Shown: positions 596 through 52,233 of the stretch, piece after piece | Numbering within the stretch: position 1 is the stretch's first letter | Layout of the letters: each line of letters begins with the position of its first letter | Assembly: GCA_019636275.1 (NCBI GenBank) | Contig: JAHBXY010000019.1 | Coordinates: forward strand, 8,764 to 72,763 | DNA: 64,000 bases | Origin: Planctomycetota bacterium | GTDB taxonomy: Bacteria; Planctomycetota; J058 | Direction of reading: 5' to 3' | Made by a program: the position numbers and the translations under genes | The notes under the pieces: generated by a model | Databases searched by the model: none | Seen by the model: only the letters and a program-made list of their open reading frames with translations | What the model was told of the DNA's origin: nothing

Positions 596-3291
<2,696 letters not shown>

Positions 3292-3331: not shown

Positions 3332-6004
<2,673 letters not shown>

Positions 6005-7652
6005 CGGCTCCGCTCACCGAGGGCCTGGAGCACCGGCGCCCACCGGTCGGTCTCGAGGTCGCCGGCCGCCCGCGCGGCGTCGAGGAGCGCGCGCGCGGCC
6101 GCGGCGTCTCCGCGGCGCAGGTGGACGCGCGCCAGCAGCAGCCGCGCGTCGTTCCCCCGGCGGACCGCCGTGCGGCGGCCGCGGCGGTCCTGGCCGGGGC
6201 GCCGGGCGACCTCGGCCAGCACCTCGTCGGCGGCGGCGGCGGCGACGTCGAGGCGCTCCAGCGCGACGGCCAGCTCCGCCCGCCGCAGGTGCAGGACGTA
6301 AGGGAACGCCAGCTCCGTCGGCCCCTCCAGGGCGCGCAGCCGCTCGAGGCTCGCCGACGCGAGCGTCAGCCCCTCCTCGGCGCGCCCCCGGCGCTCGAGG
6401 AGGACGGACAGGCCGACGAACGGGCTCTCGAGGTAGCGGAGCACGTTGTCGACGTCGAAGCGGGCGTCGGCCGCGCCGAGGCTTCCGGCGCGGAAGTCGT
6501 CGCGCGCCTCGCCCCGGGCGGCGAGGGTGACGATCCGCCAGCCGACCTCGACCTGCGCCCGGAGCGACGCCTCGAGCGCCGCCTCGAGCTCCTCGCGCCA
6601 GGCCGCGTCCACCCCCGGCCAGGCGAGGAGCAGCTCGATGCACCGGTCCTCGAGGTGCAGGAGCTTGGCCGCGCGCGTCGGGTCCTTCTCCTCGCCGTCG
6701 CGCGCGCGGAAGGCCTGCACGAGCTCGAGGCCCGCCCGGGCCTGCGCGACGGCCGCCTCTCGCTCGTCGGCCGGCCGACGGAGCGCGAGCCCCACCGTGA
6801 GCGCCCCGACCCACGCGCGGGCGTGCGGCGCCCAGTAGGACGTCAGCGGCACCTCGAGCGGCTGCGGCGCCCCCAACCCCTGCAAGCGCTCGCGCTCCTC
6901 GAGCCCGAGGGAGGGGCCCAGCGCCTGCGCGAACGTGGCCCGGACCCTGGTCAGCTCGGGAGCGCCCAGCTCCGGCCAGTGCGCGCGCGCGCGCCCCTCC
7001 GCGTCGTCGCCGCCCCGGGGCTCCCGCGTCGCCCGGAGGAGCTCCGCCCACATGAGGTAGGCGTCGCCCGTCCGGTGCTCGCGCGCGAAGGTCTCGAGGA
7101 CCTGCTCGTCGAGGGCCCGCCGGAAGCGGTCGATGAACGCCAGGTTGTCCGTCGGCAGGCGGTGGAGCCCCGGCAGGGCCATGACGAGCGCCATGGGCGG
7201 GATCTTCTCCTGGGCGAGCGCCGGCCGCATGGCGTGCACGACGGCGTCGACGGTGTCGCGCCGGAACTGCTCGTCGCCCCAGTCGCCGAGGAGCTCGAGC
7301 CCGGCCTGCAGGACGTCGCCGAACCCCACCGACGCCGGCTCCGAGTCGGCCTCGTAGGAGCGCCGCCCCGCGAGCGTCGCCAGCTCGCGCGTGAGCGCGA
7401 CGAGCCGCCCCTCGCGCAGGCGCGCCCGCGGCTCGGCGCGCGCGAGCGGCGTGATCGCGCCGCGGAGCGCCTCGGCCAGCGCGGCGTAGGGCTCGTGCCG
7501 CTTCAGGCGCGGGTCGCCGTCGGGCGGGAAGCGCTCCACGAGCCGGGCGGCCGCGGCCGCGAGGGCCGCGGGCTTCCGCCGGCGCAGGGCCCCGAGCGCG
7601 AACGGCCGCGCGCGCGCGTCCACCTGCGACAGGGCCGGCAGCCCGGGGTCCG

Positions 7653-9641
<1,989 letters not shown>

Positions 9642-9750
9642 CGGCGGCGCCCCCTCCAGGGACCATATCCCTTCTTGGCAGCCCCCGGCCACCTCCGTAG
9701 ACTGCCCCGGCCCGAGGGAGACCCCTCGGCGCCCGGAGGCGGGACAGCAC

Positions 9751-11931
9751 ATGGTCGCCACGCAAGAGCCCGTCCTCGAGCTGCCCCGCGGCGGGGTCGT
9801 CGTCACGACCTCGGCCGGCCCGATCCAGTTCGGCTGCCCGCCCGAGACGATCAAGGACCACATGGCGCTCGGGCTCACCGTGCCCACGCACTACGTCGTC
9901 CCGCGCGAGCGCTTCGACCGCTCGCGCGGGGTCAACGTGAGCGAGGTCGAGTTCCCGGCGTACTTCAACTTCTTCGTGCTCAAGCGCACGGTGAACCTGA
10001 TCACGGACGAGGACGGCGAGGCGCGCCTGCGCCGGATCCTCACCGAGACCCTCTTCGGCCCCCAGGGGCGCTACGCGGGCGACGCCGAGTTCGACGCGTC
10101 GATCGCCCCGGCCGCGCGCCCCGACCACGCGACCGAGTGCGGCCAGTTCCGCAAGAACCCCTTCAAGCCGACCGAGCGCCTCGAGGTCGACACGCTCATC
10201 AGCTTCACCCGCTTCGACGCCGCCGGCGTGGCCCGCGTGGGCGACGACGTGACGATCGAGCGGCTGCCCGGCGACCAGGGCTACGTGGTGAAGGACGGCG
10301 GCGCCGAGCGCGCGCGCGTGCCCGCGCGCGTGCGCCTGCCCGAGAAGGAGCGCCCCTCGACCGAGGCGCCGGGCGCCTTCCACCCGCCCGCCTTCGGCGT
10401 GACGGTGCTCGGCTCCAGCCACGGCTTCGACCCCAAGGGCAAGACGACCGGGTTCATCGTGTGGATCAACCACCGCGGCCTGCTCGTCGACCCGCCCATG
10501 GGCTCGACCGACCTCTTGGCGCAGAGCGGGATCGCGCCCAAGCTCATCGACGGCGTGATCCTCACCCACTGCCACGCCGACCACGACAGCGGCACCTTCC
10601 AGAAGATCCTCGAGGAGGGGCGCGTCGTCCTCTACACGTCGCCCACGATCCTGGGCTCGTTCCTGCGCAAGTACGCCGCGCTCTCCGGCCTCGACGAGGA
10701 CTTCCTGCGCCGCCTGTTCATCTACCGGCCGGTGAAGATCGGCTCGAGCGTGCGCGTGCACGGCGGCGAGCTGCGCTTCTTCTACACGCTGCACTCGATC
10801 CCGACCGTCGGCTTCGAGGCCTACTACGGCGGCAAGAGCCTGGTGTTCTCGGCCGACACGCTCTACGACCCGGCCCGGATCGAGGACATGGTGAAGGCGG
10901 GCACGCTCACGCGCGAGCGCGCGGACGCCCTGATCCGCTTCCCGTGGCACCACACGGTCGTCCTGCACGAGGCGGGCGTGCCGCCGCTCCACACGCCGGT
11001 GCCCGTGCTCGCGGCCCTGCCGCCCGACGTGAAGAAGCGGCTCTACCTGCTGCACATCGCCCAGAAGGACCTCCCGGCCGACCAGGGGCTCAAGGTGGCC
11101 CCGGCCGGGGTCGAGAACACGCTGCGCATCCCGGTCGACCCGCCGCGCCACGCCGAGGCGATCGCGCTCCTCGACGTGTTCGTGGGCCTCGACCTGTTCC
11201 GCGGCTTCTCGCTGGCGCGCGCGCGCGAGCTCCTGCAGGTGGCGCGCACGCGCGAGTACCCGGCCGGGCAGCGGATCATCGCGCAGGACAGCCCGGGCGA
11301 CGCCTTCTACGTGATCGTCTCGGGCGTGGCCTCGGTCAAGCGCGACGGCGCCGAGCTCAAGCGCTACCAGGCGGGCGACTTCTTCGGCGAGACGGCACTG
11401 ATCCTCGGTCAGCCGCGCAACGCCGACGTCTTCGCCCACACCGACTGCGTGCTGGCGGAGATCGAGCGCTACGACTTCCTCTACCTGCTGCGCGGGACGG
11501 ACATCGCCGAGCGCCTTGTGCGGCTGGCCAACATGCGCGAGGAGCGCTCCTGGGAGCTGTTCGCGCGCAACTCGGCCCTGCAGGAGCTCACGTCGGCGCA
11601 GAAGACGCAGCTCCAGTCGTTCCTCGAGGTCGTCGAGCTGAAGCCCGGCGACGCGCTCTGGACGGCCGGCGCGCCGGCCGAGGCGGCCTTCCTCGTCGAC
11701 CAGGGCCGGGTGGCCGTCGACGGCTACGGCGGGGTCGCGCTCGAGCCGTTCGGCCCGGGCGCCTTCCTGGGCGAGGTCGACGCGCTCGTCGAGGGGCGCG
11801 CCTGCGCCGGCTCGGCCCGCGCCGTCGAGGCGGGGCGGGCCTTCCGCATCAAGCGGTCCGACCTCGTCCGCTGGTTCGAGGAGAACCCCGGCGTGCGCCT
11901 GGCCTTCCTCGGCACGAAGGCCGTCGAGTGA
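9751..11931 (+). CDS. metallo-β-lactamase-fold hydrolase fused to two cyclic-nucleotide-binding (CAP/cNMP) domains; candidate cNMP-regulated phosphodiesterase
   Basis: MBL motif ILTHCHADHDSG plus downstream His/Asp residues. Two CAP-type cNMP-binding segments (FFGETALILGQPRNADV and FLGEVDALVEGRACAG). The N-terminal 230 aa are unassigned. Confidence 0.85.
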   Translation: MVATQEPVLELPRGGVVVTTSAGPIQFGCPPETIKDHMALGLTVPTHYVVPRERFDRSRGVNVSEVEFPAYFNFFVLKRTVNLITDEDGEARLRRILTETLFGPQGRYAGDAEFDASIAPAARPDHATECGQFRKNPFKPTERLEVDTLISFTRFDAAGVARVGDDVTIERLPGDQGYVVKDGGAERARVPARVRLPEKERPSTEAPGAFHPPAFGVTVLGSSHGFDPKGKTTGFIVWINHRGLLVDPPMGSTDLLAQSGIAPKLIDGVILTHCHADHDSGTFQKILEEGRVVLYTSPTILGSFLRKYAALSGLDEDFLRRLFIYRPVKIGSSVRVHGGELRFFYTLHSIPTVGFEAYYGGKSLVFSADTLYDPARIEDMVKAGTLTRERADALIRFPWHHTVVLHEAGVPPLHTPVPVLAALPPDVKKRLYLLHIAQKDLPADQGLKVAPAGVENTLRIPVDPPRHAEAIALLDVFVGLDLFRGFSLARARELLQVARTREYPAGQRIIAQDSPGDAFYVIVSGVASVKRDGAELKRYQAGDFFGETALILGQPRNADVFAHTDCVLAEIERYDFLYLLRGTDIAERLVRLANMREERSWELFARNSALQELTSAQKTQLQSFLEVVELKPGDALWTAGAPAEAAFLVDQGRVAVDGYGGVALEPFGPGAFLGEVDALVEGRACAGSARAVEAGRAFRIKRSDLVRWFEENPGVRLAFLGTKAVE

Positions 11932-12291: not shown

Positions 12292-13179
12292 TCACGGCGC
12301 GACCTCGCCCACCACGAACACCATGCTCGACAGGTCCAGCCACGAGCGCCGGCGCGCCCCGTAGCGCGCCACGAGCGCGCGGGCCTCCACGAGCTCGACC
12401 AGCGTCAGGCCGTGCTCGCGCAGGAGCGGGGCGAGCCGCTCCTGCGGCGGGCCCCACACGAGCGGCTCGTGGTAGAGGAGGCGGAACGCCAGCGAGGGAA
12501 GGTCGCGGCGGGCGAGGCGGGCCAGCCCGCCCGCGGGCGGGCACCAGGCGTCGAAGGCCAGGAGGCTCCCGGGCGCCGAGAGGCCGCGCACCAGGTCGAG
12601 CGTGGCCCGCACCGCGGGCTCGTCGAGGTACATCGACACCCCCTCCCACACCCACACGGTCGACGCGCCGACCTCGAGGCCGGCCGCGCGCAGCCGCTCC
12701 TCGATCGAGTCGCGCTCGAAGTCGACCTGCACCGGGACGACCCTGGCCCGCGGCGCGTCGCCGTAGGCGGTCGCCGCCAGCGCGGCCTTGCGGCGCGCGG
12801 TCGCGGGGTGGTCGACCTCGAACAGCGTCCGGCCGCGCAGGGCCGGCTCGAGGCGCACGGCCCGCGAGTCGTAGCCCGCCCCCAGGAGCACCACCTGCGT
12901 GGCCCGCGGCGTGGCGGCGATCAGCTCGTCGATCGCCCGGTGCCGCGCCAGCACGAAGGTCATCGTCCCCTGGAGGGCGCGGTCGACCTGCCGCGCCAGC
13001 GCCGCGCGCGCCCGCGCCGGGAGCCGGTCGGCCAGGTCGAGGAGCGACGCCCGCCACGGGCCGACGAACGCGCGCGCCCAGGGGTCGGAGACGAGGCGCT
13101 CCTCCACGGGCAGCAGCGCCTCCAGCGCCCGCCAGGCGCACACCAGCTCGGCCGTGTCGCTCGGGCGGTCGGGTCGCAT
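12292..13179 (-). CDS. class I SAM-dependent methyltransferase, LCM/O-methyltransferase (TIGR00027-like) family
   Basis: VLLGAGYDSRAVRL and EVDHP motifs typical of the leucine carboxyl / mycobacterial O-methyltransferase family; 295 aa. Confidence 0.75.
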   Translation of the reverse strand: MRPDRPSDTAELVCAWRALEALLPVEERLVSDPWARAFVGPWRASLLDLADRLPARARAALARQVDRALQGTMTFVLARHRAIDELIAATPRATQVVLLGAGYDSRAVRLEPALRGRTLFEVDHPATARRKAALAATAYGDAPRARVVPVQVDFERDSIEERLRAAGLEVGASTVWVWEGVSMYLDEPAVRATLDLVRGLSAPGSLLAFDAWCPPAGGLARLARRDLPSLAFRLLYHEPLVWGPPQERLAPLLREHGLTLVELVEARALVARYGARRRSWLDLSSMVFVVGEVAP

Positions 13180-13256: not shown

Positions 13257-13529
13257 ATGCCGCGCGTCCAGTTCACCAGGCACCTCGCGCGCTACTTCCC
13301 GGCGCTCCGCGACGGGGAGTTCGACGGGGCGACCCTGGCCGAGGTCGTGGCCGCGATCGACCGGGCGCACCCGGGCCTCGGCGGCTACGTGCTCGACGAC
13401 CGCGGCGCGGTGCGCAAGCACGTCAACGTGTTCATAGGCGACGACCTCCTGCGCGACCGCGAGCGGCTCGACGAGCCGCTGCCGCCCGGGGTGACCGTCT
13501 CCATCTTCCAGGCGCTCTCGGGGGGGTAG
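13257..13529 (+). CDS. MoaD/ThiS-family ubiquitin-like sulfur-carrier protein (C-terminal Gly-Gly)
   Basis: 90 aa ending …SIFQALSGG; β-grasp-like pattern HVNVFIGDDLL…PGVTVSIF. Confidence 0.65.
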   Translation: MPRVQFTRHLARYFPALRDGEFDGATLAEVVAAIDRAHPGLGGYVLDDRGAVRKHVNVFIGDDLLRDRERLDEPLPPGVTVSIFQALSGG

Positions 13530-13533: not shown

Positions 13534-14619
13534 ATGTCCGCGACGCTCGTCCTCGGCACGAAGAAGGGGCTCCTCGTCCTCGAGCGAGGGGCCAGCGGCT
13601 GGCGCTCGCGGGCGCTCCAGCACGGCGGGATCCACGTCTCGCTCGCCCTGCACGACGCGCGCACGGGCACCCTCTGGGCGGCCCTCGACCATGGCCACTG
13701 GGGCGTGAAGCTCTCGCGCAGCAAGGACGGCGGCGAGACCTGGACCGAGGTCGCCCCGCCGCGCTACCCCGAGGGGACGATCACGCCCTGCACGCAGAAG
13801 CCGGCCGCCCTGCGCTACGTCTACGCCTTCCAGCCCGGGCGGCCCGAGGAGCCGGGCCGGCTCTACGTGGGCACCGTCCCTGGCGGCCTGTTCGTGAGCG
13901 ACGACGACGGCGCCAGCTTCACCCTCGACCGGGCGCTGTTCGACCACCCGACCCGCGGCGAGTGGGGGCAGGGCGGCAAGGACTTCGACGAGCCGGGGCT
14001 GCACTCGGTCGTCGTCGACCCGCGCGACGGGCGCAAGGTCCTCGTCGGGATCAGCTCGGCCGGCGTCATGCGCACGACGGACGGCGGCGAGACCTGGGCG
14101 CCGAGCAACCGCGGCCTGAAGAACTCCTACCTGCCCGACCCCGACGCCGCGGTCGGCCACGACCCGCACCTCGTCATGGCCTGCGCCGCGGAGCCGGACG
14201 TCGTGTGGCAGCAGAACCACTGCGGCGTGTTCCGCTCGACCGACGGCGGCGCGACCTGGACCGACATCGGGCAGGCCAAGGGCCCCGTCGGCTTCGGCTT
14301 CCCGATCGCCGCCGACGCGCGCGACCCGGCGCGCGCCTGGGTCGTCCCGGCGACCTCCGACGAGCGGCGCTACGCCGTCGGCGGCGCGCTGTGCGTGGCG
14401 CGGACCGACGACGGCGGCGCGAGCTGGAGCGTGCTGCGCGACGGGCTGCCGCAGGAGGACTGCTACGACGTGACCTACCGCCACGCGCTCGACGCGCGCG
14501 GCGACACGGTCGCCTTCGGCACGACGACGGGCAACCTCTACGTGAGCGAGGACCGCGGCGAGCGCTGGCGCTGCCTGGGCTCGAACTTCCCGCCGATCAC
14601 CTCGGTGCGCTTCGCGTGA
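13534..14619 (+). CDS. BNR/Asp-box repeat protein (sialidase/Ycf48-like β-propeller)
   Basis: Five or more S-x-D-x-G-x-T-W Asp-box motifs (SKDGGETW, TDGGETW, TDGGATW, TDDGGASW, SEDRGERW). It starts 4 bp after the MoaD-like gene. Confidence 0.8.
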   Translation: MSATLVLGTKKGLLVLERGASGWRSRALQHGGIHVSLALHDARTGTLWAALDHGHWGVKLSRSKDGGETWTEVAPPRYPEGTITPCTQKPAALRYVYAFQPGRPEEPGRLYVGTVPGGLFVSDDDGASFTLDRALFDHPTRGEWGQGGKDFDEPGLHSVVVDPRDGRKVLVGISSAGVMRTTDGGETWAPSNRGLKNSYLPDPDAAVGHDPHLVMACAAEPDVVWQQNHCGVFRSTDGGATWTDIGQAKGPVGFGFPIAADARDPARAWVVPATSDERRYAVGGALCVARTDDGGASWSVLRDGLPQEDCYDVTYRHALDARGDTVAFGTTTGNLYVSEDRGERWRCLGSNFPPITSVRFA

Positions 14620-15630
14620 TCAGCGCCGCGCGCCGGAGCCCGCGCGCCCGCCCGCGGCGGCCGGGGCGCGGCGCAGCCGGTTCGCGTCGGCGTTGGTCAG
14701 CCGCCGCACCTTGAACCCCTGCGCCTGGAGCAGCGCGACCACGCCCTCGTCGCCGTGGTAGTGCGCCGTGCCCACGGCGTAGAAGGTCGACCGGCCCGGC
14801 GCCTCGCGCAGCCGCGCCGTGATCCGCTCGGCCATGCGGTGGTTGCGGTCGACGATGAGCGCCTTGCGCATGCGGTCGACCAGCGCCTGGTCGTCGCCCG
14901 CGTTCGTGACCTCGATCGCGCGCACCAGCGCGTCGAGGTCGCCCGCGAGGTACTTGCTCACGAGCTCCTCCAGCGGCCGCTTGCGCGCCGCCCGGTCGCT
15001 CGGCGCCTCGACCGCGTCGAGGGCCGCGGCCAGCATGCGCGCCTGCTCCTCGTCGGTGAGCTGGTCGAAGCAGCCGAGCTGCTCCTCGATCGTCTCCAGG
15101 CCGCCGACCTCCTTGCCCTGCGCCCTGGCGCGGTCGAAGAGCCCCTGGTCGAGCGCCTTGGCGCCGCCCTCCTGCGCCCCGGCCTCGAGCATCTGCAGCT
15201 GCAGGCTCGTGCACCACACCTTGATCCGCTCGAAGGCCGCCGCGCCGCCCAGCCCCTTGCGCCGGGCGTAGGCGTCGAGGCGCTCGACGAGCTCGGGCGC
15301 CACCCGCGTGCTCAGCCCCTGGCCCGCGGGGAGCATGACGTGGCGGGCCATGGCCATCTGCAGGCCCTGGTCCATGGGGACCTCGGTGAGCAGGGCGTCC
15401 GACAGGTCGATCGCCTTGTTCACGACGTTCGGCAGCGCGGTCACGCGCGGGTCGGCCACGTGGATCGTCCCGTAGAGGAACGAGGGCGCCTCGCCCTCGA
15501 TCAGCCACAGGAACGGCTTGTCGGTCGGGCGGGCGGCGCGCCGCTCCTGCGCGTCGCTCAGCCCGGCGAAGCCGAGCACGAGCGCGGTGAGGCCGATCGC
15601 GAGATGGCGGATGAGCTTCATCGTGTTCAT
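14620..15630 (-). CDS. TraB/GumN family protein with signal peptide
   Basis: N-terminal signal sequence, then FLWLIEGE…YGTIHV, the TraB/GumN hallmark. Confidence 0.7.
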   Translation of the reverse strand: MNTMKLIRHLAIGLTALVLGFAGLSDAQERRAARPTDKPFLWLIEGEAPSFLYGTIHVADPRVTALPNVVNKAIDLSDALLTEVPMDQGLQMAMARHVMLPAGQGLSTRVAPELVERLDAYARRKGLGGAAAFERIKVWCTSLQLQMLEAGAQEGGAKALDQGLFDRARAQGKEVGGLETIEEQLGCFDQLTDEEQARMLAAALDAVEAPSDRAARKRPLEELVSKYLAGDLDALVRAIEVTNAGDDQALVDRMRKALIVDRNHRMAERITARLREAPGRSTFYAVGTAHYHGDEGVVALLQAQGFKVRRLTNADANRLRRAPAAAGGRAGSGARR

Positions 15631-20252: not shown

Positions 20253-23200
20253 TTGCGGAGCTTCCGCGGTCGCGACGAAGATGGCCGGGGACCGCCCGTG
20301 CACCTCGCCCGGGGGCACCCGGGAGCGCGGTTGACCGAGCCCAGGCCTGAGCCCGTCGTAGAGGACGCCGCGAGCGCCGCGCGCCCGGCTGATCGGCCCG
20401 GACTCGCCCAGGTCGCCGGCGCGCTGGCCGACGCGGCGACCCTCGAGGCCGTCATCGAGGCGCTCGCGCCGGGCGCGCTCGGCGTGCGGGCCGTCGCCCT
20501 GTTCTGCCTGGCCTCCGACGGCGAGGCGCTCGAGCGCCTGACGGGCGCCGAGGCGGACGAGCGCGCGCTCGCCGCCGCGGCCCTGCGCGACGGAGGCCCG
20601 CGCGCGACGACGCCGCCGGCGCGGCGCTGCCGCTGCGCGCCGGCGGCCAGTCGTGGGCGCCCTCGTCGCGACCCCGACGGCCGCCTGACCGCGCCGCGCT
20701 CGTCGCCCCCTGCCGCCCTCGTCGGCCAGGCGCTCGAGCGGGCGCGCCTCGCCGGGGCGGCGGCGCGGGCGGAGGCGACCGCGCAGCAGCGGCAGCGCGA
20801 GGCCGAGCTCCTCCTGCGCGTGTCCGACGCCGTCGGCCGGGCCGACACCCTGGACGAGGTCCTCGAGCCGGCGCTCGACGCGGTGTGCGTGGCCCTGCGC
20901 GTCGACCGCGCCGCGGTGCTCATCGGCGACGACGCCGGCGTCATGCGCTTCCGCGCCTGGCGCGGCCTGTCCGACGGCTACCGGCGCGCCGTCGAGGGCC
21001 ACTCCCCCTGGCGCGTCGGCGACCCCGACCCGCGCCCTCTCTTCGTGCCCGACGCCGACGCCGACGCCGACCTCGCGGCCTACCGCCCCCTCCTGCGCGC
21101 CGAGGAGGTGGCCGCGCTGGGGTTCGTCCCCCTCGTCGCGCAGCGGCGCCTCCTGGGCAAGCTCATGGTCTACGCGCGCGCGCCGCGGGCCTTCTCCGAG
21201 CACGACGACCGGCTCGCCCGGGCGGTGGCGGCGCAGGTGGCGCAGGCGATCCGCCGGACGGAGCTCCTCGCCTCGGAGCGGCGCGAGCGCGACCTCGCCC
21301 GCCGCCTCGCCGACCAGGCGAGCCGCCTCCAGGCCGTCACGGCCGCCCTGTCGACCGCCTCGAGCGTGAGCGACGTGGCCGCCGTCATCGTGATCCAGGG
21401 GGCGGCGGCCGCCGGCGCGGCGACCGCCGGCCTGTGGCTCCTCGACGAGGCCGACGCCGCCCTCGAGCTGACGAGCCAGCAGAACTTCAGCGCCGCGGCC
21501 GACGCGTTCCGCCGCCTCCCGCTCGACCATCCGCGACCCGTGCCCGTGCTCGACGCCGTGCGCAGGGGCGAGGCGGTGTTCCTCGAGGACCGGCGCGCCT
21601 TCGCCGCCCGCTACCCCGACATCGAGCGCGTGGCCGCGCCGCGGCCCGAGCTGGCCATCGCCGCCCTGCCCCTGCTCGTCGGCGGCTGCGTGGGGGCGCT
21701 CGCCCTCACCTTCGACGAGGCGCGCGCGTTCACGTCCGACGAGCGGCACGCCCTCCTGCTCCTCGCCCGGCACTGCGCCCAGGCGATCGGCCGCGCGCGG
21801 CTGTTCGACCTCGAGGCGCGCGCCCGGGCCGAGGCCGAGGCGGCGCAGCAGCGCACCTCGTTCTTGCTCACCGCCAGCGCCCTGCTCGCCTCGTCGCTCG
21901 ACTTCGAGGAGACGCTGCGGCGCCTGCCCCGCCTGGCCGTCCCGCGCGTGGCCGACGGCTTCGCGGTCGAGCTGGCGACGGAGCGCGGGCGGTCCGCCCA
22001 GCCGCTCGCCCTGGCCCACGTCGATCCGGAGCGGATGGCGGCGCTCCAGGAGCTGCGCCGGCGCTGGCCGCCGGACCCGGACGCGCCCCACGGCGCGCCG
22101 CGGGTGATCCGCACCGGCCGCTCGGCGCTGTACGCGGTCGTCGACGACGCGCTGCTGAACGAGGTCGCGGTCGACGCCGAGCACCTGCGCGCGCTGCGGA
22201 CCGTCGGCATCGCCTCGGCGCTCATCGTCCCCATGGAGGCGCGCGGGCGGACCTACGGCGCGCTCGCGTTCTACTCGGGGGCGCCGGGCCGCTTCGGCGA
22301 GCAGGACCTGCAGCTCGCCGAGCTCCTCGGGCGGCGCGCCGGGATCGCGATCGACAACGCGCTGCTCTACCGCACCGCGCAGGCGGCGGTCCGCGCCCGC
22401 GAGAAGGTCCTGGCGGTCGTGTCGCACGACCTGCGGGGGCCGCTGCAGGTCGTCCAGATGGGCGCGGCCGCCCTGCAGCGGGTCGAGCCCGCGCCGCCGG
22501 TCGTGCGCCGGACGTCCGGGTCGATCCTGCGCGCCGGCGAGCGCATGTCGCGCCTGATCGAGGACCTGCTCGACTTCACCGGGATCCAGGGCGACCGCCT
22601 GGCGATCGCGGCGGGCCCGTGCCGGGCCGAGGAGGTCGTCGCGGCGACGCTCGAGACGTTCGCCGCCCTGGCGAGCGAGCGCGGCGTGCGCCTCGCGGCG
22701 GACGTCGCGCCCGACTTGCCAGGGCTCCACGCCGACCGCGACCGCCTGATCCAGGCCCTGGGCAACCTGGTCTCGAACGCCGTGCGGGTGACCCCCGAGG
22801 GCGGGCGCGTCGTGGTGCGGGCCCGCGCGGAGGGCGGCGAGCTCGCGCTCGCGGTCGAGGACACGGGGCCGGGCCTCGACCCGCGCGAGGTCGCGCGCCT
22901 GTTCGAGCCGTTCTGGCGGGGCGAGCAGGTCCGCTACAAGGGCACCGGGCTGGGCCTGGCGATCGCCAAGGCGATCGCCGAGGGCCACGGCGGCCGGATC
23001 TCGGCCGACGGCCGGCCAGGGGCGGGGAGCACGTTCACGCTCGCGGTGCCGCTCCAGGCCAGGCCGCAGCCTTCGAAGGCCGGCGATCGGGCGGCCAGGC
23101 CGTGGGACGACGGCCTGGGCGCGGCGCCCGCGATCGACGTCGGGACCCCCGAGGAGGCGCCGCGCCGGCATCACGACCTGTTCATGCAGACGCCGGCGCC

Positions 23201-24689
23201 GATCTGCATCCTGCGCGGCCACGACCTCGTGTTCGAGCTCGCCAACGGCTCGTTCCTCGCCGCGACCAGCCGGCGCGACGTCGTCGGGCGGCGGCTCCTC
23301 GACGCCTTTCCGGAGCTCGCGGGGCAGGGCCTCGACGAGCTGTTCCGGGACGTCCTGCGCAGCGGCAGCCCCTACGTCGGCGACGAGCTCCTCCTGCGGC
23401 TGGACCGGACCGGGACCGGCGCGCTCGAGGACTCCTACTGGTCGATCAGCCTCTCGCCCCTGCGCGACGGGGGGCGCGCCGACCGCGTCGTGGCGATCGG
23501 CTTCGACCGCACGGCGCAGGTCCGCCAGCGGCGGGAGCTCGAGCTCGCTCGAGGCCGGGCCGAGGCCGCCAGCCGGGCCAAGGACGAGTTCTTCGCCGTG
23601 CTCGGCCACGAGCTGCGCAACCCGATCGCCCCGATCGTCACCGCGCTCCAGCTCATGCGCCTGCGCCCGGACGCGCCGTTCGCCCGCGAGCGCGCCCTCA
23701 TCGAGCGGCAGGTCGGGCACGTCAAGCGGCTCGTCGACGACCTCCTCGACGTGTCGCGCCTGGCGCGCGGCAAGGTCACGCTCGCCCGCCGGCCGGTCGA
23801 CCTGGCGCGCGCCCTGGCCCGCGCCGTCGACGCGGCCGCGCCGCTGCTCGAGGAGCGGCGCCACCGGCTCGCCATGGACGTCCCGGCGGCGGCGAGCCTC
23901 GTCGTCCTGGGCGACGAGGACCGCCTCGTGCAGGTCGCGGCCAGCCTGCTCACGAACGCGGCCCAGCACATGGACCAGGGCGGGACGGTCCGCCTGGCCG
24001 CCCGGCGGGCGGGCGACGAGGTCACGTTCACCGTCACCGACGACGGGCCCGGGATCGAGGCCGCCCTCCTCCCGCGCGTGTTCGAGCCGTTCGTGCAGGG
24101 GCGCCGGCCGGACGACCGCGTCCAGGGGGGGCTCGGCCTCGGGCTGTCGATCGTGCGCAGCCTGGTCGAGCTGCACGGCGGGACCGTCGCGGCGGCGAGC
24201 CCCGGCCGCGGGCAGGGGAGCGCCTTCACGGTCGCGTTGCCCGCCGCGCCGGCCGAGGAGGCGGCGGCCGGACCGGACCGGGCGGCGCCCGCCGCGCGCG
24301 CGCGCCGGGTCCTCGTCGTCGACGACAACCGCGACGCGGCGGACCTGCTGGCCGAGGCCCTGACCGCCCTCGGCCACGAGGCGCGGCGGGCGTTCGACGC
24401 GCCGTCGGCCCTCGAGGTCGCCGCCGAGTTCGCGCCGGAGGTGGCCCTCCTCGACCTCGGGCTGCCGATCATGAACGGCTGGGAGCTGGCGCGCCGCCTG
24501 CGCGAGCTGCCGGCCTGCCGCGGCGCGCGCCTGTTCGCGGTCACCGGCTACGGCCTCGACGCCGACGTCGAGCGCTCGCGCGAGGCCGGGTTCGAGCGGC
24601 ACTTCGTCAAGCCGGTCGACCTCGAGGTCATCGTCGAGGCCATCGAGGAGGCCGTCGACGCGGGGCCCATCCCCGCGCCGACCGCGTGA
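20253..24689 (+). CDS. hybrid sensor histidine kinase with GAF domains, PAS domain, two complete HisKA+HATPase transmitter modules and a C-terminal receiver
   Basis: First H-box VVSHDLRGPL with G-box GTGLGLAIAK. Second H-box VLGHELRNPI with GGLGLGLSIV. C-terminal REC RVLVVDDNRD…ALLDLGLP…KP. Confidence 0.85.
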   Translation: MRSFRGRDEDGRGPPVHLARGHPGARLTEPRPEPVVEDAASAARPADRPGLAQVAGALADAATLEAVIEALAPGALGVRAVALFCLASDGEALERLTGAEADERALAAAALRDGGPRATTPPARRCRCAPAASRGRPRRDPDGRLTAPRSSPPAALVGQALERARLAGAAARAEATAQQRQREAELLLRVSDAVGRADTLDEVLEPALDAVCVALRVDRAAVLIGDDAGVMRFRAWRGLSDGYRRAVEGHSPWRVGDPDPRPLFVPDADADADLAAYRPLLRAEEVAALGFVPLVAQRRLLGKLMVYARAPRAFSEHDDRLARAVAAQVAQAIRRTELLASERRERDLARRLADQASRLQAVTAALSTASSVSDVAAVIVIQGAAAAGAATAGLWLLDEADAALELTSQQNFSAAADAFRRLPLDHPRPVPVLDAVRRGEAVFLEDRRAFAARYPDIERVAAPRPELAIAALPLLVGGCVGALALTFDEARAFTSDERHALLLLARHCAQAIGRARLFDLEARARAEAEAAQQRTSFLLTASALLASSLDFEETLRRLPRLAVPRVADGFAVELATERGRSAQPLALAHVDPERMAALQELRRRWPPDPDAPHGAPRVIRTGRSALYAVVDDALLNEVAVDAEHLRALRTVGIASALIVPMEARGRTYGALAFYSGAPGRFGEQDLQLAELLGRRAGIAIDNALLYRTAQAAVRAREKVLAVVSHDLRGPLQVVQMGAAALQRVEPAPPVVRRTSGSILRAGERMSRLIEDLLDFTGIQGDRLAIAAGPCRAEEVVAATLETFAALASERGVRLAADVAPDLPGLHADRDRLIQALGNLVSNAVRVTPEGGRVVVRARAEGGELALAVEDTGPGLDPREVARLFEPFWRGEQVRYKGTGLGLAIAKAIAEGHGGRISADGRPGAGSTFTLAVPLQARPQPSKAGDRAARPWDDGLGAAPAIDVGTPEEAPRRHHDLFMQTPAPICILRGHDLVFELANGSFLAATSRRDVVGRRLLDAFPELAGQGLDELFRDVLRSGSPYVGDELLLRLDRTGTGALEDSYWSISLSPLRDGGRADRVVAIGFDRTAQVRQRRELELARGRAEAASRAKDEFFAVLGHELRNPIAPIVTALQLMRLRPDAPFARERALIERQVGHVKRLVDDLLDVSRLARGKVTLARRPVDLARALARAVDAAAPLLEERRHRLAMDVPAAASLVVLGDEDRLVQVAASLLTNAAQHMDQGGTVRLAARRAGDEVTFTVTDDGPGIEAALLPRVFEPFVQGRRPDDRVQGGLGLGLSIVRSLVELHGGTVAAASPGRGQGSAFTVALPAAPAEEAAAGPDRAAPAARARRVLVVDDNRDAADLLAEALTALGHEARRAFDAPSALEVAAEFAPEVALLDLGLPIMNGWELARRLRELPACRGARLFAVTGYGLDADVERSREAGFERHFVKPVDLEVIVEAIEEAVDAGPIPAPTA

Positions 24690-24870
24690 CCCGGCGCCAC
24701 GCCCGGGCCGCTCACTGGACGCCTCGGGCGCTCACAGGCGACCTCGGCCGGGGGCAGGCCACGACCCCGGGTCGATGCGACCCGAGCACGCTCGTCGAGC
24801 ACGTCGAGCACGGCGCGCGGGCGTCGCGACGGGTGGCGCCCGCCGCGGCCGGGCGCCATCGTGCTGGTGC

Positions 24871-27641
24871 TTGAGCGACGGCGACACGACGAAGCGGGAC
24901 GCGAGGGTCCTCCCCCTGCCCGGCGACACGCTCCAGGGCGCGTCGCTGCTCCCGCTGCCGCGCCCGGGCGAGCTCTCCGTGACCGCGCTCGACGGCCCCC
25001 CCGCGCCGGCCGCCCCGGCGCCCGCCGCCCGGCGCCTCGGCGCCTACGAGGTCGAGCGCGAGCTGGCCCGCGGCGGCATGGGCGTCGTCTACGCGGCGCG
25101 CAGCCTGCGCCTCGGCCGGCGCGTCGCGCTCAAGGTGCTCCAGGCGGGCGCCTTCGCCGACGCCGAGGAGGTCGAGCGGTTCCTGCTCGAGGCGCGGGCG
25201 GTGGCGCGGCTGCGGCACCCCAACATCGTCGCCGTTCACGAGGTCGACCGCGACGGCGCCACCTGGTTCCTGGCCATGGACCTGATCGAGGGCGGCTCGC
25301 TCCGCGGGCGGGTCCTGCGCGACGGCCCGCTCCCCCTGCGGCAGGCGGCGGCGCTCGCGCGCGACGTGGCGCGGGCGCTGCACCACGCGCACGAGCGGGG
25401 GATCGTCCACCGCGACGTCAAGCCCCACAACGTGCTCCTGGACGCCGCGGGGACCCCCTACGTGGCGGACTTCGGCCTGGCGAAGGAGGTCGGGCGTGAC
25501 GGGTCGGGGCTGACGGTCACGGGGCAGGTCGTGGGCACGCCCGCCTACATGCCGCCCGAGCAGGCGCAGGGCGACCTGGCGCGCATCGACCGGCGCAGCG
25601 ACGTCTACTCGCTCGGGGCCACCCTCTTCGAGCTGCTCACCGGGCGCCCGCCCTTCGCTGCGTCGAACGCGGTGGCGCTCCTCCGCGCCGTCCTGGAGGA
25701 CGAGCCGCCGGCGCCGTCGACGGTCCGACCCGAGGTCGACCGCGACCTGGAGACGATCGTCCTCACCTGCCTGGCCAAGGACGGGGCGCGGCGCTACGAC
25801 ACGTGCGCGCTGCTGGCGGAGGACCTGGACCGCTGGCTCGCGGACGAGCCGATCGCGGCGCGGCGGCCTGGCGCGCTCGAGCGCGCGGCCCGCTGGCGCG
25901 GCAGGCGGCCCGGCCTCGTCGCGGTCGTGCTGGCGGCGCCGCTGGTGGTCGGCGCCGTGGCCGGCGGCAGCGGTCGCGGCGTGCCGGCGGCGGCGCGGAG
26001 CAGGCCGGGTCGCCTGGCCGTCGAGGCCGCCGCGAGGGGGCCCTGGCTGTGGCGGTCGCGCCCGACCAGCGGGTGGCGCGGGCGCAGGACCTGCTCGACG
26101 CGGCGCGGCGCTGGCTCGAGGTCGAGCCCGGCGACCGCTCGCGGCGGGCCGTGACGGACGCCGCGCTCGGGCTGGGCGACCTCGCGCGCGCGGCGGGCGA
26201 CTGGAGCCGGGCCGGCGACGCGTACGCCCACGCCGGCGCCGCAGGCCTCGAGTCCGTGCGCGCGGCGGCCGCGGTGCGGTGGTGCGGCCATCTCTCGTCC
26301 GCGCGGGCGGCCGAGGCCCGGGGCGAGCCGCTCGAGGCGCTGGCGGCGCTGGACAGCGCGCTGGCGCTCGACCTGGGCTGGCCCGAGGCGTACCTGGAGC
26401 GCGCCCGCGTGCTGCGCGACATCGGGTCGGGCCTGACCGCCCTGCGCGAGTTCGACCGCTACCTGGCGCAGCGGCCCGACGACCTGCGCGCGCTGGTGGA
26501 GCGGGCGTCGGCGCGCGACCTCTCGTCATGGCGCGAGGCGCTGGCGGACCTGGACCGCGCGATCGCCCTGCGGCCCGACGCGGCCTGGCTGCGGCTCAAG
26601 CGCGCCGAGGTCCTCATCCGGGCGGGGCAGCTGCGCGAGGCCATCGACGACGCTCGCCGGGCCGTCGCGCTGGCGCCGGCGTGGGGCGAGGCCTGGGGCG
26701 GGCTCGGCTGGATGCTCATGCGGCTCGACGAGGTCGACGAGGCGTCGGCGGCGCTCGAGCGAGGGGTCGCGCTGGCGCCGGAGGTGGTCCGGCTGCGGCA
26801 CTGGCTGGCGGAGTGCCACCTGCGGCGCCGGGACCCGCGGGCGGTCGTCGAGGCCGAGCGCGCGCTGGCGCTGCTGCCGGAGGACATCCCCGCCCGGCTG
26901 GTGCTGGCGGCGGCCAGCCTGCGGCTCGAGGGCGACGCCGCGCGCGCCCGCCGCGAGCTCGAGGCGGTCCTGCGCGCCTCGCCCAGGCAGCCGGAGGCGC
27001 TCGCGCTCCTGGCCGAGGCGCTGCAGGTGGAGGGGGACCTGCCCCGCGCGCGGGCGCGCGCGGAGGAGGCGCTCGCCGTCGACCCGGCGAACGTCACGGC
27101 GCTCCTGATGCGGGCGCAGGGGCGGGTGCGCGAGCACGACCTGGCGGGCGCCCGCGCGGACGCGGGGCGCGTCCTGGAGCTCGCCCCCGGCCGGGCCGAG
27201 GCGTGGCTCGTGCTCGCGGCCATCGAGCGTCTGGAGGGAGCTCCGGGGGCCGCCCTCGCGGCCAGCGCCCGGGCGGCGGCCGCCGCCCCGCGCCACGGCA
27301 AGGTGCGGCTGGAGGTGGGGGTGATCCACGCCGAGCTGGGCCAGGCGCGCGCGGCCCTGGCCCACTTCGACGCCGCGCTGGAGCTCGGCGAGCGGCAGGC
27401 GCACGTGGGGCGCGGCGTGGCGCGCCTCCAGCTCGGGGAGCTGGACGCGGCCCTGGCCGATGCCGAGGCCGGCCTCGCGGCGGGCGACCCATCCGGGCTC
27501 CTCCTCCGGGCCATGGTCCATGGCGCGCGCCGCGACTTCGCCCGCGCGCGCGCCGACGCCGCGGCCTTCCTGCGCGAGGTTCCGGACGACCACCCCCACG
27601 CCGCGAAGGCGCGCGAGCTGCTCGAACGCTGGGGGCGCTGA
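24871..27641 (+). CDS. Ser/Thr protein kinase – TM – TPR protein; frame changes between the TM segment and the TPR domain (about 25990–26050)
   Basis: Kinase motifs (ARGGMGVVY, ALKVL, HRDVKPHNVL, DFGLAK, AYMPPE) and TM (GLVAVVLAAPLVVGAVAGG) are in frame 1 (start TTG 24871, alternative GTG 24979). At least ten TPR-like repeats are in the frame of ORF 25803..27641. Confidence 0.65.
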
Positions 27642-39959: not shown

Positions 39960-40045
39960 GACCCCTCATCGAGCCCGCGGCCGGGTCGCTGCCCGGTCGC
40001 GGAAGTCTCGGCGCGTGAGCGTACAGGGTCGGCCGGGGGCCTTCA

Positions 40046-40099
40046 AGCCGGGAGGTGGGTCACCCGCCGCCGGGGAGCGCCAGCAGGTCGGCGACGGCG
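40046..40099. repeat. direct repeat A (copy of the 3' end of the 40974..42902 gene)
   Basis: agccgggaggtgggtcacccgccgccggggagcgccagcaggtcggcgacggcg is nearly identical to 40961..41014. Confidence 0.5.
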
Positions 40100-40153
40100 G
40101 CGCGGGCGAACGAACGCCGGCGCATGACGCGTCCGTGACCGCCGCCGACCAGG

Positions 40154-40948: not shown

Positions 40949-40960
40949 CCACGCAGGCGA

Positions 40961-41014
40961 GCCGGGAGGTGGGTCACCCTCCGCCCGGGAGCCCCAGCAG
41001 GTCGGCGACGGCGT
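40961..41014. repeat. direct repeat B (the authentic 3' end of the 40974..42902 gene)
   Basis: See repeat A; together the two repeats flank the lipoprotein gene. Confidence 0.5.
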
Positions 41015-42902: not shown

Positions 42903-42904
42903 CG

Positions 42905-44716: not shown

Positions 44717-44859
44717 CTGAACGCTCCTGCGCGGCCGGCCCGCCCGGGCCCGCCGCCAACCACCTGATTGAACCTCGCCGCCCGGCCGGACGCATCAACT
44801 GAAGTCGAACCCGCGCTGGATCCCGGACCGCCGCGGCTCGTCTTGCGGCGGCGGCCCGC

Positions 44860-46200: not shown

Positions 46201-46201
46201 G

Positions 46202-51169: not shown

Positions 51170-51194
51170 CCTGAACGAAGAACGGTCTCCCGCC

Positions 51195-51223
51195 GCGCCC
51201 GGCCTCCACACGAGGCCGGGCGC
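51195..51223 (+). terminator. perfect 10-bp GC hairpin after the repeat-protein stop
   Basis: gcgcccggcc-tccacacga-ggccgggcgc; no U-tract. Confidence 0.35.
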
Positions 51224-52163: not shown

Positions 52164-52233
52164 CCGCGCCGACCGGCCTCGACCTCTCGCGGCGCGCTGG
52201 CCCGGGTCGGGGCCGAGGGCTACACTCCAGCCG

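Follow-up and report, generated by a model that had tools for sequence, protein, structure and literature searches.

Background

What is known about phosphodiesterases (PDEs) of the metallo-β-lactamase (MBL) fold that carry their own cyclic-nucleotide (cNMP) sensors? [quoted passage not shown] The experimental facts on these enzymes are taken from a review (PMC11988041), from PMC8684759, which gives published and unpublished results, and from the genome paper (PMC3188802), in which DICPUDRAFT_98774 is listed as PdeD and HCHADHDS is given as the PdeD/PdeE motif. More remote are Apyc1 and YhfI, whose cyclic-mononucleotide PDE activities have been reported (PMC9117128), and the atypical class II PDEs, a grouping based on PF12706 that includes YhfI, Rv1339 and CpdA (PMC9293780). 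Our literature searches found no experimentally characterised bacterial member of the PdeD/PdeE family. Here we describe a planctomycetotal gene of this kind in a 64-kb window, that is, the whole stretch of DNA that was analysed.

A complete gene of the PdeD/PdeE family

The gene was taken from the list of open reading frames.

9751..11931, plus strand: complete gene predicted to encode a PdeD-type phosphodiesterase, ATG to TGA, 726 aa, stop codon at 11929-11931

With a GC3 of 0.99 and a GC2 of 0.48, the ORF has a strong coding signature in a window of 70-80% GC. The AF2 model of the full-length 726-aa protein is confident as a single body (pLDDT 89.4, pTM 0.88). When 8000 candidates were scored, 1902 homologues were found at E <= 1e-5, well above chance level. 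The best 120 are all full-length, and the full-length homologues are 53-96% identical to the 726-aa protein. Pfam on the ORF confirmed the domain order read by the initial annotation, an MBL domain with an HxHxDH motif followed by two CNB domains. The PdeD/PdeE-like architecture proposed there also holds, and the relationship is stronger than one of layout alone, for the protein is a full-length sequence homologue of Dictyostelium PdeD. It is 48% identical to D. purpureum PdeD (DICPUDRAFT_98774, P0362) over aa 203-726 (E 3e-176) and 57% identical over aa 9-104 (E 2e-32); the two values for a protein of D. citrinum (P0360), which at 90% clusters with sequences from D. discoideum, are 43% and 58%.

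The product is probably a 3',5'-cyclic-nucleotide phosphodiesterase that acts in the cytosol as a stand-alone enzyme and belongs with PdeD/PdeE (GbpA/GbpB) in the family called 'class IIb' or lactamase_B-type. Its hydrolysis of cNMP to 5'-NMP is predicted from homology and from the intact active site. By independent naming, the bacterial members are called "cAMP/cGMP-dependent 3',5'-cyclic-AMP/GMP phosphodiesterase" at NCBI. Since the databases already recognise the family and name it correctly, the gene is an ordinary family member and opens no new category; a bacterial counterpart of the Dictyostelium enzymes, as proposed in the initial annotation, is not new.

The catalytic domain

The features of the catalytic region are as follows. 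Conservation was counted on an alignment of 75 bacterial and 10 eukaryotic members.

10336..10392, plus strand: linker from the N-terminal domain to the catalytic domain, aa 196-214; pLDDT 62 (block 201-210), with length and sequence varying in the alignment
10393..11148, plus strand: catalytic MBL domain, aa 215-466, from Pfam and from profile comparison with the PDB
10483..10995, plus strand: stretch in which the other MBL ligand motifs lie, D247 (LVDPP), H348 (LHSIP), D369 (FSADT), H406 (LHEAG) and H414 (PLHT), each unchanged in all 75 bacterial and all 10 eukaryotic members
10567..10584, plus strand: HxHxDH metal-binding motif H273-C-H275-A-D277-H278, part of HCHADHDS; every one of the 75 bacterial and 10 eukaryotic members has it unchanged

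The longer string THCHADHDSG occupies aa 272-281 (nt 10564-10593), with HCHADHDS at aa 273-280. The nine ligand positions (D247, H273, H275, D277, H278, H348, D369, H406, H414) are invariant in 85/85 members. The ligand set for a binuclear metal site is thus complete, and catalytic competence is predicted. Pfam Lactamase_B matches aa 235-381 with an E of 3.8e-11 for the whole protein and 4e-12 for the isolated domain. Lactamase_B_2 (PF12706) matches with an E of 2.4e-8 (34.3 bits, the cut-off being 27) for the whole protein and 7.4e-9 for the isolated domain.

Which MBL proteins are closest to this core? When its profile was compared with the PDB, the best matches were Apyc1 7T28 (1e-7), 1ZKP (2.8e-7), YhfI 6KNS (7e-6) and Apyc1 7U2R/7U2S (1.3e-5). 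In the same comparison RNase J and CPSF73 were weaker (E > 1e-3), as were RNase Z and glyoxalase II (E about 0.1-0.4). Two outcomes had been named beforehand as speaking against a cNMP-gated PDE: a core that groups with RNase Z, RNase J or glyoxalase II, and CNB domains that fail their profile. Neither was found, as Apyc1 and YhfI are the nearest solved structures and both CNB domains pass cNMP_binding. The label 'class II PDE' used in the initial annotation needs qualifying. Pfam PDEase_II (PF02112) gives no match at E <= 1 for the whole protein, nor at E <= 10 for the isolated core, and the Dictyostelium enzymes are termed 'class IIb / lactamase_B type' (PMC11988041, PMC3188802). With PF12706 above its gathering score and cyclic-mononucleotide PDEs as nearest solved relatives, the protein falls among the atypical class II PDEs. 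It falls outside Apyc1 proper, for which the profile Anti-Pycsar_Apyc1 (PF23023) gives a weak match of 14.6-16.9 bits against a cut-off of 50.

The cyclic-nucleotide-binding domains

The C-terminal part of the protein carries two CNB domains, here called CNB-A and CNB-B.

11188..11550, plus strand: CNB-A, aa 480-600, canonical CNB domain (best Pfam stretch 501-581; matches to PKG and PKA)
11383..11430, plus strand: CNB-A phosphate-binding cassette FGETALILGQPRNADV, aa 545-560, from the family alignment
11563..11928, plus strand: CNB-B, aa 605-726, with a degenerate phosphate-binding cassette (second cNMP_binding stretch; matches to 5H5O and 5D1I)
11764..11811, plus strand: CNB-B cassette FLGEVDALVEGRACAG, aa 672-687, from its position in the sequence

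Pfam cNMP_binding finds two stretches in the whole protein (E 3.7e-34), and the tandem pair resembles the tandem CNB structures of PKA RI-alpha and PKG (phmmer E 8e-28; Foldseek E 1e-17). Two CAP-family CNB domains had been claimed, and both indeed pass the profile, but only the first has a canonical cassette; the second, read as FLGEVDAL...RACAG, is without the conserved Arg. In CNB-A, 74-75 of the 75 bacterial members retain G546, E547, R556 and A558, while the residue after the Arg is variable (T in 23, S in 22 and N in 15 of the 75). The intact cassette is compatible with allosteric activation by cNMP, and CNB-A is likely the allosteric sensor. In CNB-B the family alignment has no conserved Arg, and the GE of the cassette is often replaced, by AD, AP, AK, GR, GD or CN. 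The CNB-B cassette is likewise degenerate in Dictyostelium PdeD.

The N-terminal domain

The remaining part of the protein is the N-terminal domain (N-domain).

9751..10365, plus strand: N-domain, aa 1-205, predicted MBL-like fold without metal ligands, from AF2 and Foldseek
9838..9858, plus strand: motif PPETIKD, aa 30-36; P31, E32, T33, K35 and D36 are the same in every one of the 75 bacterial and 10 eukaryotic members
9943..9963, plus strand: motif E-V-E-F-P-A-Y (ExEFPxY), aa 65-71; E67, F68, P69 and Y71 identical in 75/75 bacterial and 10/10 eukaryotic members, position 65 being E or D

An extra, unassigned N-terminal domain of 230 aa had been noted at first sight. Unassigned it is, with no match in Pfam, NCBIfam or PDB sequence searches, but its length is about 205-215 aa. 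Nor is it an extra of the bacterial proteins, for the eukaryotic members, among them those of Dictyostelium, Protostelium, oomycetes and algae, have it too, and in highly conserved form. We found it in 553 representative clusters, and in eukaryotes it is often internal in longer proteins. The motifs PPETIKD and ExEFPxY are as invariant as the metal ligands.

What kind of domain is it? Several searches give no significant match. Pfam finds nothing even at E <= 10, and the profile of the domain finds nothing among PDB sequences (best E 0.5). A BFVD search gives nothing significant, one of its two best matches being a beta-lactamase-superfamily domain. Comparison of the N-domain with the catalytic domain by hhalign (global, local and restricted) gives no similarity (probability 0.1-0.3%), and therefore the idea of an internal duplication is without sequence support. 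The domain-only AF2 model has a pLDDT of 88.5, and in a single Foldseek search with it against the PDB, 50/50 of the best matches are MBL-fold proteins from many subfamilies. The best is Apyc1 7U2R (E 1.1e-4, TM 0.42), and ELAC1 is also among the best. The top matches have probability 1.00 over 173-200 aligned columns, with TM values of 0.35-0.45 against a usual threshold of 0.5 and rmsd of 5-15 A. In the full-length AF2 model, the secondary-structure elements of residues 1-100 follow one another in an order and at a spacing that parallel the catalytic domain. Going by the order of these elements, ExEFPxY would sit in the loop before a helix that corresponds to the position of HxHxDH in the catalytic domain; hhalign gives no support for this register of ExE and HxH. 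The N-domain is proposed to be a degenerate MBL pseudo-protomer, because the 50 best PDB matches of its predicted fold are MBL proteins only.

One alternative is that the N-domain is an unrelated alpha/beta regulatory, ligand-binding or oligomerisation domain, whose MBL likeness is a generic beta-sandwich resemblance; the remainder of our explanation would then be unchanged. The low TM values and high rmsd in Foldseek point this way, as do the empty hhalign, PDB profile and BFVD searches and the size of the domain, with ~190 structured residues against ~250 in a full MBL domain. We nevertheless consider it rather unlikely, given that all 50 best PDB matches have the MBL fold with a top probability of 1.00, that the first 100 residues mirror the catalytic domain in secondary structure, and that a beta-lactamase-superfamily domain stands among the two best BFVD matches. 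What is more, long-form tRNase Z provides a precedent for an inactive and an active MBL domain in tandem.

If the N-domain is a pseudo-protomer, what might it do? We tentatively suggest that it may be a built-in second protomer, in which PPETIKD and ExEFPxY complete or gate the pocket in cis, comparable to E74 and Y112 of the opposing protomer of Apyc1, and that cNMP binding to CNB-A would reposition it. If this is true, the PdeD/PdeE family, the Dictyostelium enzymes included, would use a structural mechanism that has yet to be described for it.

Genomic context and family evolution

Upstream of the gene there is one candidate promoter.

9675..9703, plus strand: promoter-like site TTGGCA-17-TAGACT, 48 nt upstream of the ATG; a consensus match only, with 1 site against 0.0 expected in shuffles

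It lies inside a divergent intergenic region of roughly 106 nt, the start of the neighbouring kinase being placed near 9640 by tblastn with the kinase of locus L081. The window has no Rfam RNA family. The neighbourhood is kinase-rich, as first described: Pfam finds six Pkinase genes in the 64 kb, and there is also a GAF hybrid histidine kinase. The only recurring neighbour, at 17/80 loci, is a divergent Ser/Thr kinase, which was considered as a family-wide partner; it is orthologous only in close Planctomycetota, the distant phyla have unrelated neighbours, and the candidate was rejected. No partner gene is conserved across phyla at the loci examined, and no nucleotide cyclase is found among the 39 scanned ORFs of the window; therefore the context gives cNMP signalling no independent support. 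Phage or defence neighbours are found neither in the window nor at the loci examined.

The family is present in the genomes of at least 533 bacterial species, from Planctomycetota, Polyangiaceae, Sericytochromatia, Riflebacteria, Wallbacteria and Leptospirales, and in many protists too. Labilithrix luteola DSM 27648 has an orthologue of the present gene. On a rough tree the bacterial members all fall into one clade, next to which the eukaryotic ones make up a deep grade. One possible scenario from this topology is a single crossing between eukaryotes and bacteria, after which the family would have spread through bacteria of complex lifestyle.

Proposed mechanism and alternative substrates

If the protein works as its characterised homologues from Dictyostelium do, cAMP or cGMP would bind to CNB-A. 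The conformational change would be passed to the catalytic domain, probably via CNB-B as a relay or lid module, a role for CNB-B that is conjecture, and the activity of the catalytic domain would be raised. The two-metal site would then hydrolyse the 3',5'-cyclic phosphodiester to 5'-NMP. With an activator that is identical to the substrate, or a congener of it, clearance of cNMP pulses would be threshold-like and self-limiting. Less certainly, the N-domain might play in cis the part of the second protomer in homodimeric Apyc1, YhfI and RNase Z, and the residues of PPETIKD and ExEFPxY would help to shape the substrate pocket or a regulatory interface.

Might the enzyme be gated by cNMP and yet hydrolyse something else? 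It could be an RNase-Z-like nuclease, or a diesterase whose substrate is 2',3'-cNMP, a cyclic pyrimidine, a cyclic dinucleotide or some other phosphodiester, cAMP or cGMP then being an allosteric signal only. We regard this as improbable. Homologues at JGI are variously annotated as 'ribonuclease BN', 'phosphoribosyl 1,2-cyclic phosphodiesterase' and 'glyoxylase-like', and nucleotide specificity differs within the Apyc1/YhfI clade (PMC9117128). NCBIfam models of RNase Z also match weakly and N-terminally (E about 6e-4, 18-19 bits). The RNase Z equivalog models all stay below their cut-offs (TIGR02651 18.1 bits against 292.95; NF00080x 14-19 bits against 252-416), and the NF00080x matches cover only the first ~65 residues of the core. 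A component of Pycsar-like anti-phage immunity, or a counter-measure to it, in which a cNMP-sensing Apyc1-like enzyme clears cCMP or cUMP signals, is hardly credible: Apyc1 is among the closest solved structures, its Pfam profile matches weakly, and PADLOC models of Pycsar effectors (PycTIR, TIR effectors) and of PycC match with E of 3e-15 to 1e-8, but the profile score is the sub-threshold one given above, those PADLOC matches are confined to CNB-A (aa 491-592) and reflect shared-domain similarity, no pyrimidine cyclase, TIR or other effector adjoins the gene here or at any locus examined, and a conserved, single-copy-like, housekeeping-style distribution over hundreds of bacterial species and many eukaryotes does not fit the patchy one of defence islands. 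A defence-system reading of the window at large was rejected likewise, as its PADLOC hits are CNB-domain or generic kinase similarity only.

Significance

A hydrolase of 3',5'-cAMP or cGMP activated by cNMP is the reading that we prefer. Members of the family are widely distributed in Planctomycetota, Myxococcota and several candidate phyla. Because eukaryote-like signalling repertoires are large there, a PDE that its substrate activates would have a key part in shaping cAMP/cGMP dynamics. The bacterial proteins are compact (about 720 aa, without low-complexity inserts and with confident AF2 models) and so would be much better suited than the Dictyostelium enzymes for a first structure of this PDE class. 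What is more, the N-domain is as conserved as the active site and is a putative part of the mechanism, and this applies equally to Dictyostelium PdeD and PdeE.

Comparison with known systems

The closest system is PdeD (GbpA, DdPDE5), which shares the N-domain, the MBL core, CNB-A and CNB-B, is alignable with the present protein end to end, and has an identical HCHADHDS. In both proteins CNB-A is canonical and the CNB-B cassette is without Arg. There are differences: the bacterial protein is compact, 726 aa against about 800-870 aa, and is without the ~125-aa insertion that the Dictyostelium proteins have inside the N-domain. The residue after the CNB-A Arg is Asn in the bacterial protein and Ser in Dictyostelium. 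The cellular context differs as well, as no sGC/GbpC pathway is known for the bacterial protein. PdeE (GbpB, DdPDE6) is longer, about 1100 aa. A protein of 1096 aa (P0211) was suspected from its length to be Dictyostelium GbpB, but its composition and source did not support this. By literature description only, PdeE is alike in family, motif and domain order (PMC3188802, PMC11988041). As PdeE acts on cAMP and PdeD on cGMP, the family holds both cAMP- and cGMP-preferring members.

Apyc1, YhfI, Rv1339 and CpdA include the closest solved structures to the core and act on cyclic mononucleotides by the shared two-metal HxHxDH chemistry (PMC9117128, PMC9293780). They are single-domain homodimers of ~250 aa without CNB sensors, whereas in the present protein a putatively degenerate MBL-like domain precedes the core and two CNB domains follow it, and the similarity is remote. 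The typical class II enzymes (PF02112: yeast Pde1, Vibrio CpdP, Dictyostelium PdsA/Pde7) are alike in having an MBL-type fold and a related motif of the HxHxDH type (HSHLDH in their case) that acts on cAMP/cGMP (PMC3188802). Unlike the present protein, which has no PF02112 match, those enzymes are without CNB domains and are mostly secreted or periplasmic.

Two more distant comparisons concern parts of the proposed mechanism. In long-form tRNase Z (ELAC2-type), an N-terminal MBL half without metal ligands and an active C-terminal half replace the homodimer of the short form. Its substrate is pre-tRNA, it has no CNB domains and no detectable sequence relationship to the present protein, and the analogy is a hypothetical one. 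In mammalian PDE2, which is cGMP-stimulated, and in other sensor-fused PDEs, a cyclic nucleotide allosterically activates the hydrolysis of itself or of its sibling. The regulatory logic proposed here would be the same, while PDE2 has an unrelated catalytic fold, of class I HD-type, and a GAF sensor in place of CNB domains.

Gene, domain composition and homology to PdeD

The window has a GC content of 70-80%, and in such GC-rich DNA the contrast between GC3 (0.99) and GC2 (0.48) in the codons of the open reading frame at 9751-11931 is the signature of a real gene. Its features are as follows.

9675-9703, promoter-like site of the phosphodiesterase (PDE) gene, 1 found against 0.0 expected in shuffles
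9751-11931, + strand, PDE gene, ATG to TGA, 726 aa
aa 235-381, Lactamase_B (Pfam, E 3.8e-11)
aa 272-281, THCHADHDSG
aa 545-560, FGETALILGQPRNADV
aa 672-687, FLGEVDALVEGRACAG

Pfam also reports Lactamase_B_2 above its gathering score (E 2.4e-8) and cNMP_binding in two stretches (E 3.7e-34). The metallo-β-lactamase (MBL) domain and two cyclic-nucleotide-binding (CNB) domains read here by the initial annotation are thus confirmed, and every motif string it quoted was located in the translated protein. The C-terminal half resembles the tandem CNB domains of PKG and of PKA regulatory subunits both in sequence (E 8e-28) and in predicted fold (Foldseek, E 1e-17). Residues 1 to 205-215 match nothing in Pfam, NCBIfam or PDB sequences.

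Is this a PdeD-like enzyme in a bacterium, as had been proposed? With a protein from the amoebozoan Protostelium as query, dictyostelid proteins were found, among them D. purpureum DICPUDRAFT_98774, listed as PdeD in the genome paper (PMC3188802). It aligns with the window protein at 48% identity over aa 203-726 (E 3e-176) and, in the N-terminal part, at 57% over aa 9-104 (E 2e-32). D. citrinum P0360 aligns in like manner; D. discoideum sequences fall in its 90% cluster. The HCHADHDS motif of PdeD and PdeE, noted together with their likeness to the lactamase_B family (PMC3188802), is exactly the same in the window protein. Judged by these alignments and the shared motif, the protein is a genuine full-length PdeD homologue, N-terminal domain included, and the proposed architecture stands.

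Catalytic core

Nine positions (D247, H273, H275, D277, H278, H348, D369, H406 and H414) are identical in 85/85 sequences when 75 bacterial loci are aligned with 10 eukaryotic proteins, and activity is accordingly expected of the window enzyme. The core (aa 215-466) was also searched by itself, as a profile, against all PDB sequences. The top matches were Bsp38 Apyc1 7T28 (1e-7) and BA1088 1ZKP (2.8e-7), followed by B. subtilis YhfI 6KNS (7e-6) and Paenibacillus Apyc1 7U2R and 7U2S (1.3e-5); RNase J and CPSF73 scored E > 1e-3, and RNase Z and glyoxalase II about 0.1-0.4. A placing with RNase Z, RNase J or glyoxalase II instead of PDEs, which would have spoken against the initial annotation, is therefore not what the search gives, as Apyc1 and YhfI rank first. 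Both are cyclic-mononucleotide phosphodiesterases, YhfI with a preference for cAMP/cGMP (PMC9117128).

The term class II PDE holds in the broad sense only: the relatives are cyclic-mononucleotide PDEs, but none of the thresholds tried gave a match to Pfam PDEase_II (PF02112). For the YhfI/Rv1339/CpdA group the name "atypical class II PDEs (PF12706)" has been used, as against the "typical" PF02112 group (PMC9293780). The testable features of the broader atypical group are present in the window protein, which came out negative for PF02112, Apyc1 (PF23023) and RNase Z. The absence of PF02112 agrees with the literature, where PdeD and PdeE form a lactamase_B type of their own, "class IIb" (PMC11988041, PMC3188802).

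N-terminal domain

What is the N-terminal domain (aa 1-205)? It had been regarded as an extra of the bacterial protein; instead it is present throughout the family, bacterial and eukaryotic, Dictyostelium PdeD included, where the PdeD-type protein carries an insertion of about 125 residues within it. P31, E32, T33, K35, D36, E67, F68, P69 and Y71 are identical in 85/85 sequences and hence as constrained as the metal ligands. AF2 models are confident for the whole protein (pLDDT 89.4, pTM 0.88) and for the domain alone (pLDDT 88.5). With the latter, the top 50 Foldseek matches in the PDB were all MBL-fold proteins, best Apyc1 7U2R (E 1.1e-4), then ELAC1, YhfI, PhnP-like enzymes, L1, RNase Z and RNase J, in alignments of 173-211 columns with low TM-scores of 0.35-0.45. 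A BFVD search found no significant match. The first ~100 residues are modelled as three strands, helix, strand, loop, helix, strand and long helix, an order and spacing that mirror the start of the catalytic domain. If that register holds, E65-x-E67-F-P-x-Y71 would stand in the place of HxHxDH; hhalign of the two domains confirmed no register (probability <1%). The models suggest that the domain is probably a degenerate MBL fold.

Cyclic-nucleotide-binding domains

Both domains pass the Pfam profile, as annotated, but only the first, CNB-A (aa 480-600), has a canonical phosphate-binding cassette. Its G546, E547, R556 and A558 are kept in 74-75/75 bacterial members; the position that follows the Arg is variable (T, S, N) and does not reveal which nucleotide is preferred. 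CNB-B (aa 605-726) keeps the fold, while its cassette shows no conserved Arg in any part of the family and often has other residues in place of the Gly-Glu. Dictyostelium PdeD has a likewise degenerate cassette (FLGDINAM...PPSIHKTT). With one cassette intact and the other degenerate in bacteria and PdeD alike, CNB-A is most likely the family's single functional cNMP site, and CNB-B a degenerate domain that may serve as a relay or lid.

Distribution of the family

A search of 5.8 billion proteins gave 1902 significant matches among 8000 candidates scored. The best 120 of these are all ~720 aa long, with 95-100% query coverage and at least 53% identity, the closest (96%) being from a Planctomycetes MAG. 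Several matches from Planctomycetota, Deltaproteobacteria and Polyangiaceae are already named "cAMP/cGMP-dependent 3',5'-cyclic-AMP/GMP phosphodiesterase" by NCBI, so the bacterial occurrence of the architecture is known and not a discovery. Literature searches turned up no experimental study of a bacterial member. At least 533 bacterial loci were counted in a scan that took a single genome for each species; the best 80 belong to Planctomycetota, Polyangiaceae, Labilithrix, Sericytochromatia, Wallbacteria, Riflebacteria, Lindowbacteria and Leptospirales, with L. luteola DSM 27648 as a cultured carrier.

The N-terminal domain alone, searched against 1.84 billion cluster representatives, matched 553 clusters. 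Many of the proteins are longer (850-2179 aa) and carry the domain internally; the long ones examined are eukaryotic (Phytophthora, Paulinella, Protostelium, Triparma) and contain Lactamase_B and cNMP_binding as bacterial members do. A profile of eukaryotic members found oomycete, labyrinthulid, green-algal, Rhodelphis and other proteins, 38-45% identical to the bacterial ones, and some eukaryotic matches are annotated "cGMP-dependent 3',5'-cGMP phosphodiesterase (A)". In a rough neighbour-joining tree, midpoint-rooted and without support values, all 76 bacterial sequences (75 loci and the window) form one clade, and stramenopiles, green algae, Paulinella, Thecamonas, Amoebozoa and Rhodelphis a deeper eukaryotic grade. 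This hints at one inter-domain transfer behind the bacterial clade, the direction of which such a tree cannot give.

Two unusual chains were seen. In P0136 (2179 aa, ENA metagenome) the N-terminal domain and a CNB domain are present, but the place expected for the MBL core holds an intein splicing domain (PF14890, aa 1297-1808), apparently an intein inserted into the catalytic domain of a PdeD-type PDE. Rhodelphis marinus P0182 and P0382 (~1100 aa) join PdeD-type MBL and CNB modules to a class I PDEase_I (PF00233), two unrelated PDE catalytic folds in each chain.

Genomic neighbourhood

Does the PDE gene have conserved partners? The annotated kinase-rich setting is borne out by six Pkinase genes (Pfam) within 64 kb, of which one also encodes TPR repeats and another a fused receiver domain.

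2587-3246, - strand, seventh kinase-like match (tblastn)
3335-6004, - strand, Pkinase-domain gene
6016-9640, - strand, divergent kinase homologue, split over two frames, change between ~7719 and 7800
7656-9887, - strand, Pkinase-domain gene
12295-13179, - strand, LCM-family methyltransferase, 3' of the PDE gene
13257-13529, + strand, ThiS/MoaD-like small protein, 3' of the PDE gene
13534-14619, + strand, BNR/sialidase-like repeat protein, 3' of the PDE gene
14623-15630, - strand, TraB/GumN family protein, 3' of the PDE gene
20253-24686, + strand, hybrid histidine kinase, 1478 aa, three GAF, two HisKA/HATPase modules, PAS, receiver
24475-26151, + strand, Pkinase-domain gene
37305-46326, - strand, cluster of three T2SSE-type secretion ATPase genes, one with N-terminal GAF, one with MshEN
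46927-48264, - strand, Pkinase-domain gene
48474-52160, + strand, Pkinase-domain gene
51652-53649, + strand, Pkinase-domain gene

The PDE gene is divergent from a Ser/Thr kinase gene starting near 9640, orthologous in the closest Planctomycetota loci (L002 and L016, 57-67% identity; also L081). In L081, from the 96%-identical MAG, it is a single 1251-aa gene (4163-7918). In the window, frame -3 holds the counterpart of its aa 3-654 (9638..7800) and frame -2 that of its aa 681-1249 (7719..6016). The split is a frameshift, assembly error or pseudogene. The Pfam-empty ORF 6004-7974 is the C-terminal part of this kinase, a half with 87% protein identity to L081. ARAGORN calls a tRNA-Ser (anticodon cga) at 6515-6608 (- strand) inside that coding half, probably a spurious call given the 80% GC content there; no Rfam family matched anywhere in the window.

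In many Polyangiaceae loci a kinase lies 1.5-2.5 kb upstream of the PDE gene with other genes between, in L083 PRK and an MFS transporter. There (6141-10169) the phosphoribulokinase/uridine-kinase-family gene and the transporter precede the PDE gene on the same strand, similarly in L017-L023, L040, L041, L051 and L060, and loci of this type have, upstream, a Ser/Thr kinase in divergent orientation together with an FHA-GAF-SpoIIE phosphatase. This arrangement is lineage-specific, unlike that of the window. The neighbours are unrelated in another Planctomycetota-like contig and five distant phyla. The LCM, ThiS-like, BNR and TraB/GumN genes downstream have a counterpart in 0/80 related loci and hence no link to the PDE; a 2OG oxygenase gene, also downstream, is likewise missing from the related loci. 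No nucleotide cyclase occurs in the 39 scanned ORFs of the window. With neither conserved neighbours nor a cyclase, the PDE is a stand-alone gene whose partners should be sought genome-wide. The GAF domains are possibly another class of cNMP or c-di-GMP sensor nearby. A defence role is unlikely, since PADLOC matches reflect only CNB-A, a domain that Pycsar effectors have too, and the general resemblance of kinases.

Proposed working and comparison with PdeD and PdeE

The domain composition, intact two-metal site, intact CNB-A, degenerate CNB-B and full-length PdeD homology are established. On this basis, cAMP or cGMP would bind CNB-A, the occupied domain would activate the MBL core, and the core would hydrolyse 3',5'-cNMP to 5'-NMP, making cNMP removal self-limiting and threshold-like. 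What is added to the known family is that the N-terminal domain is family-wide and probably a degenerate MBL fold, and that one CNB site alone is canonical; the compact bacterial proteins would be good material for a first structure of this PDE class. In Dictyostelium, PdeD hydrolyses cGMP and PdeE cAMP, each being stimulated by its own substrate through the CNB domains (PMC3188802, PMC11988041, PMC8684759), and every testable defining feature of the PdeD/PdeE family was found in the window protein.
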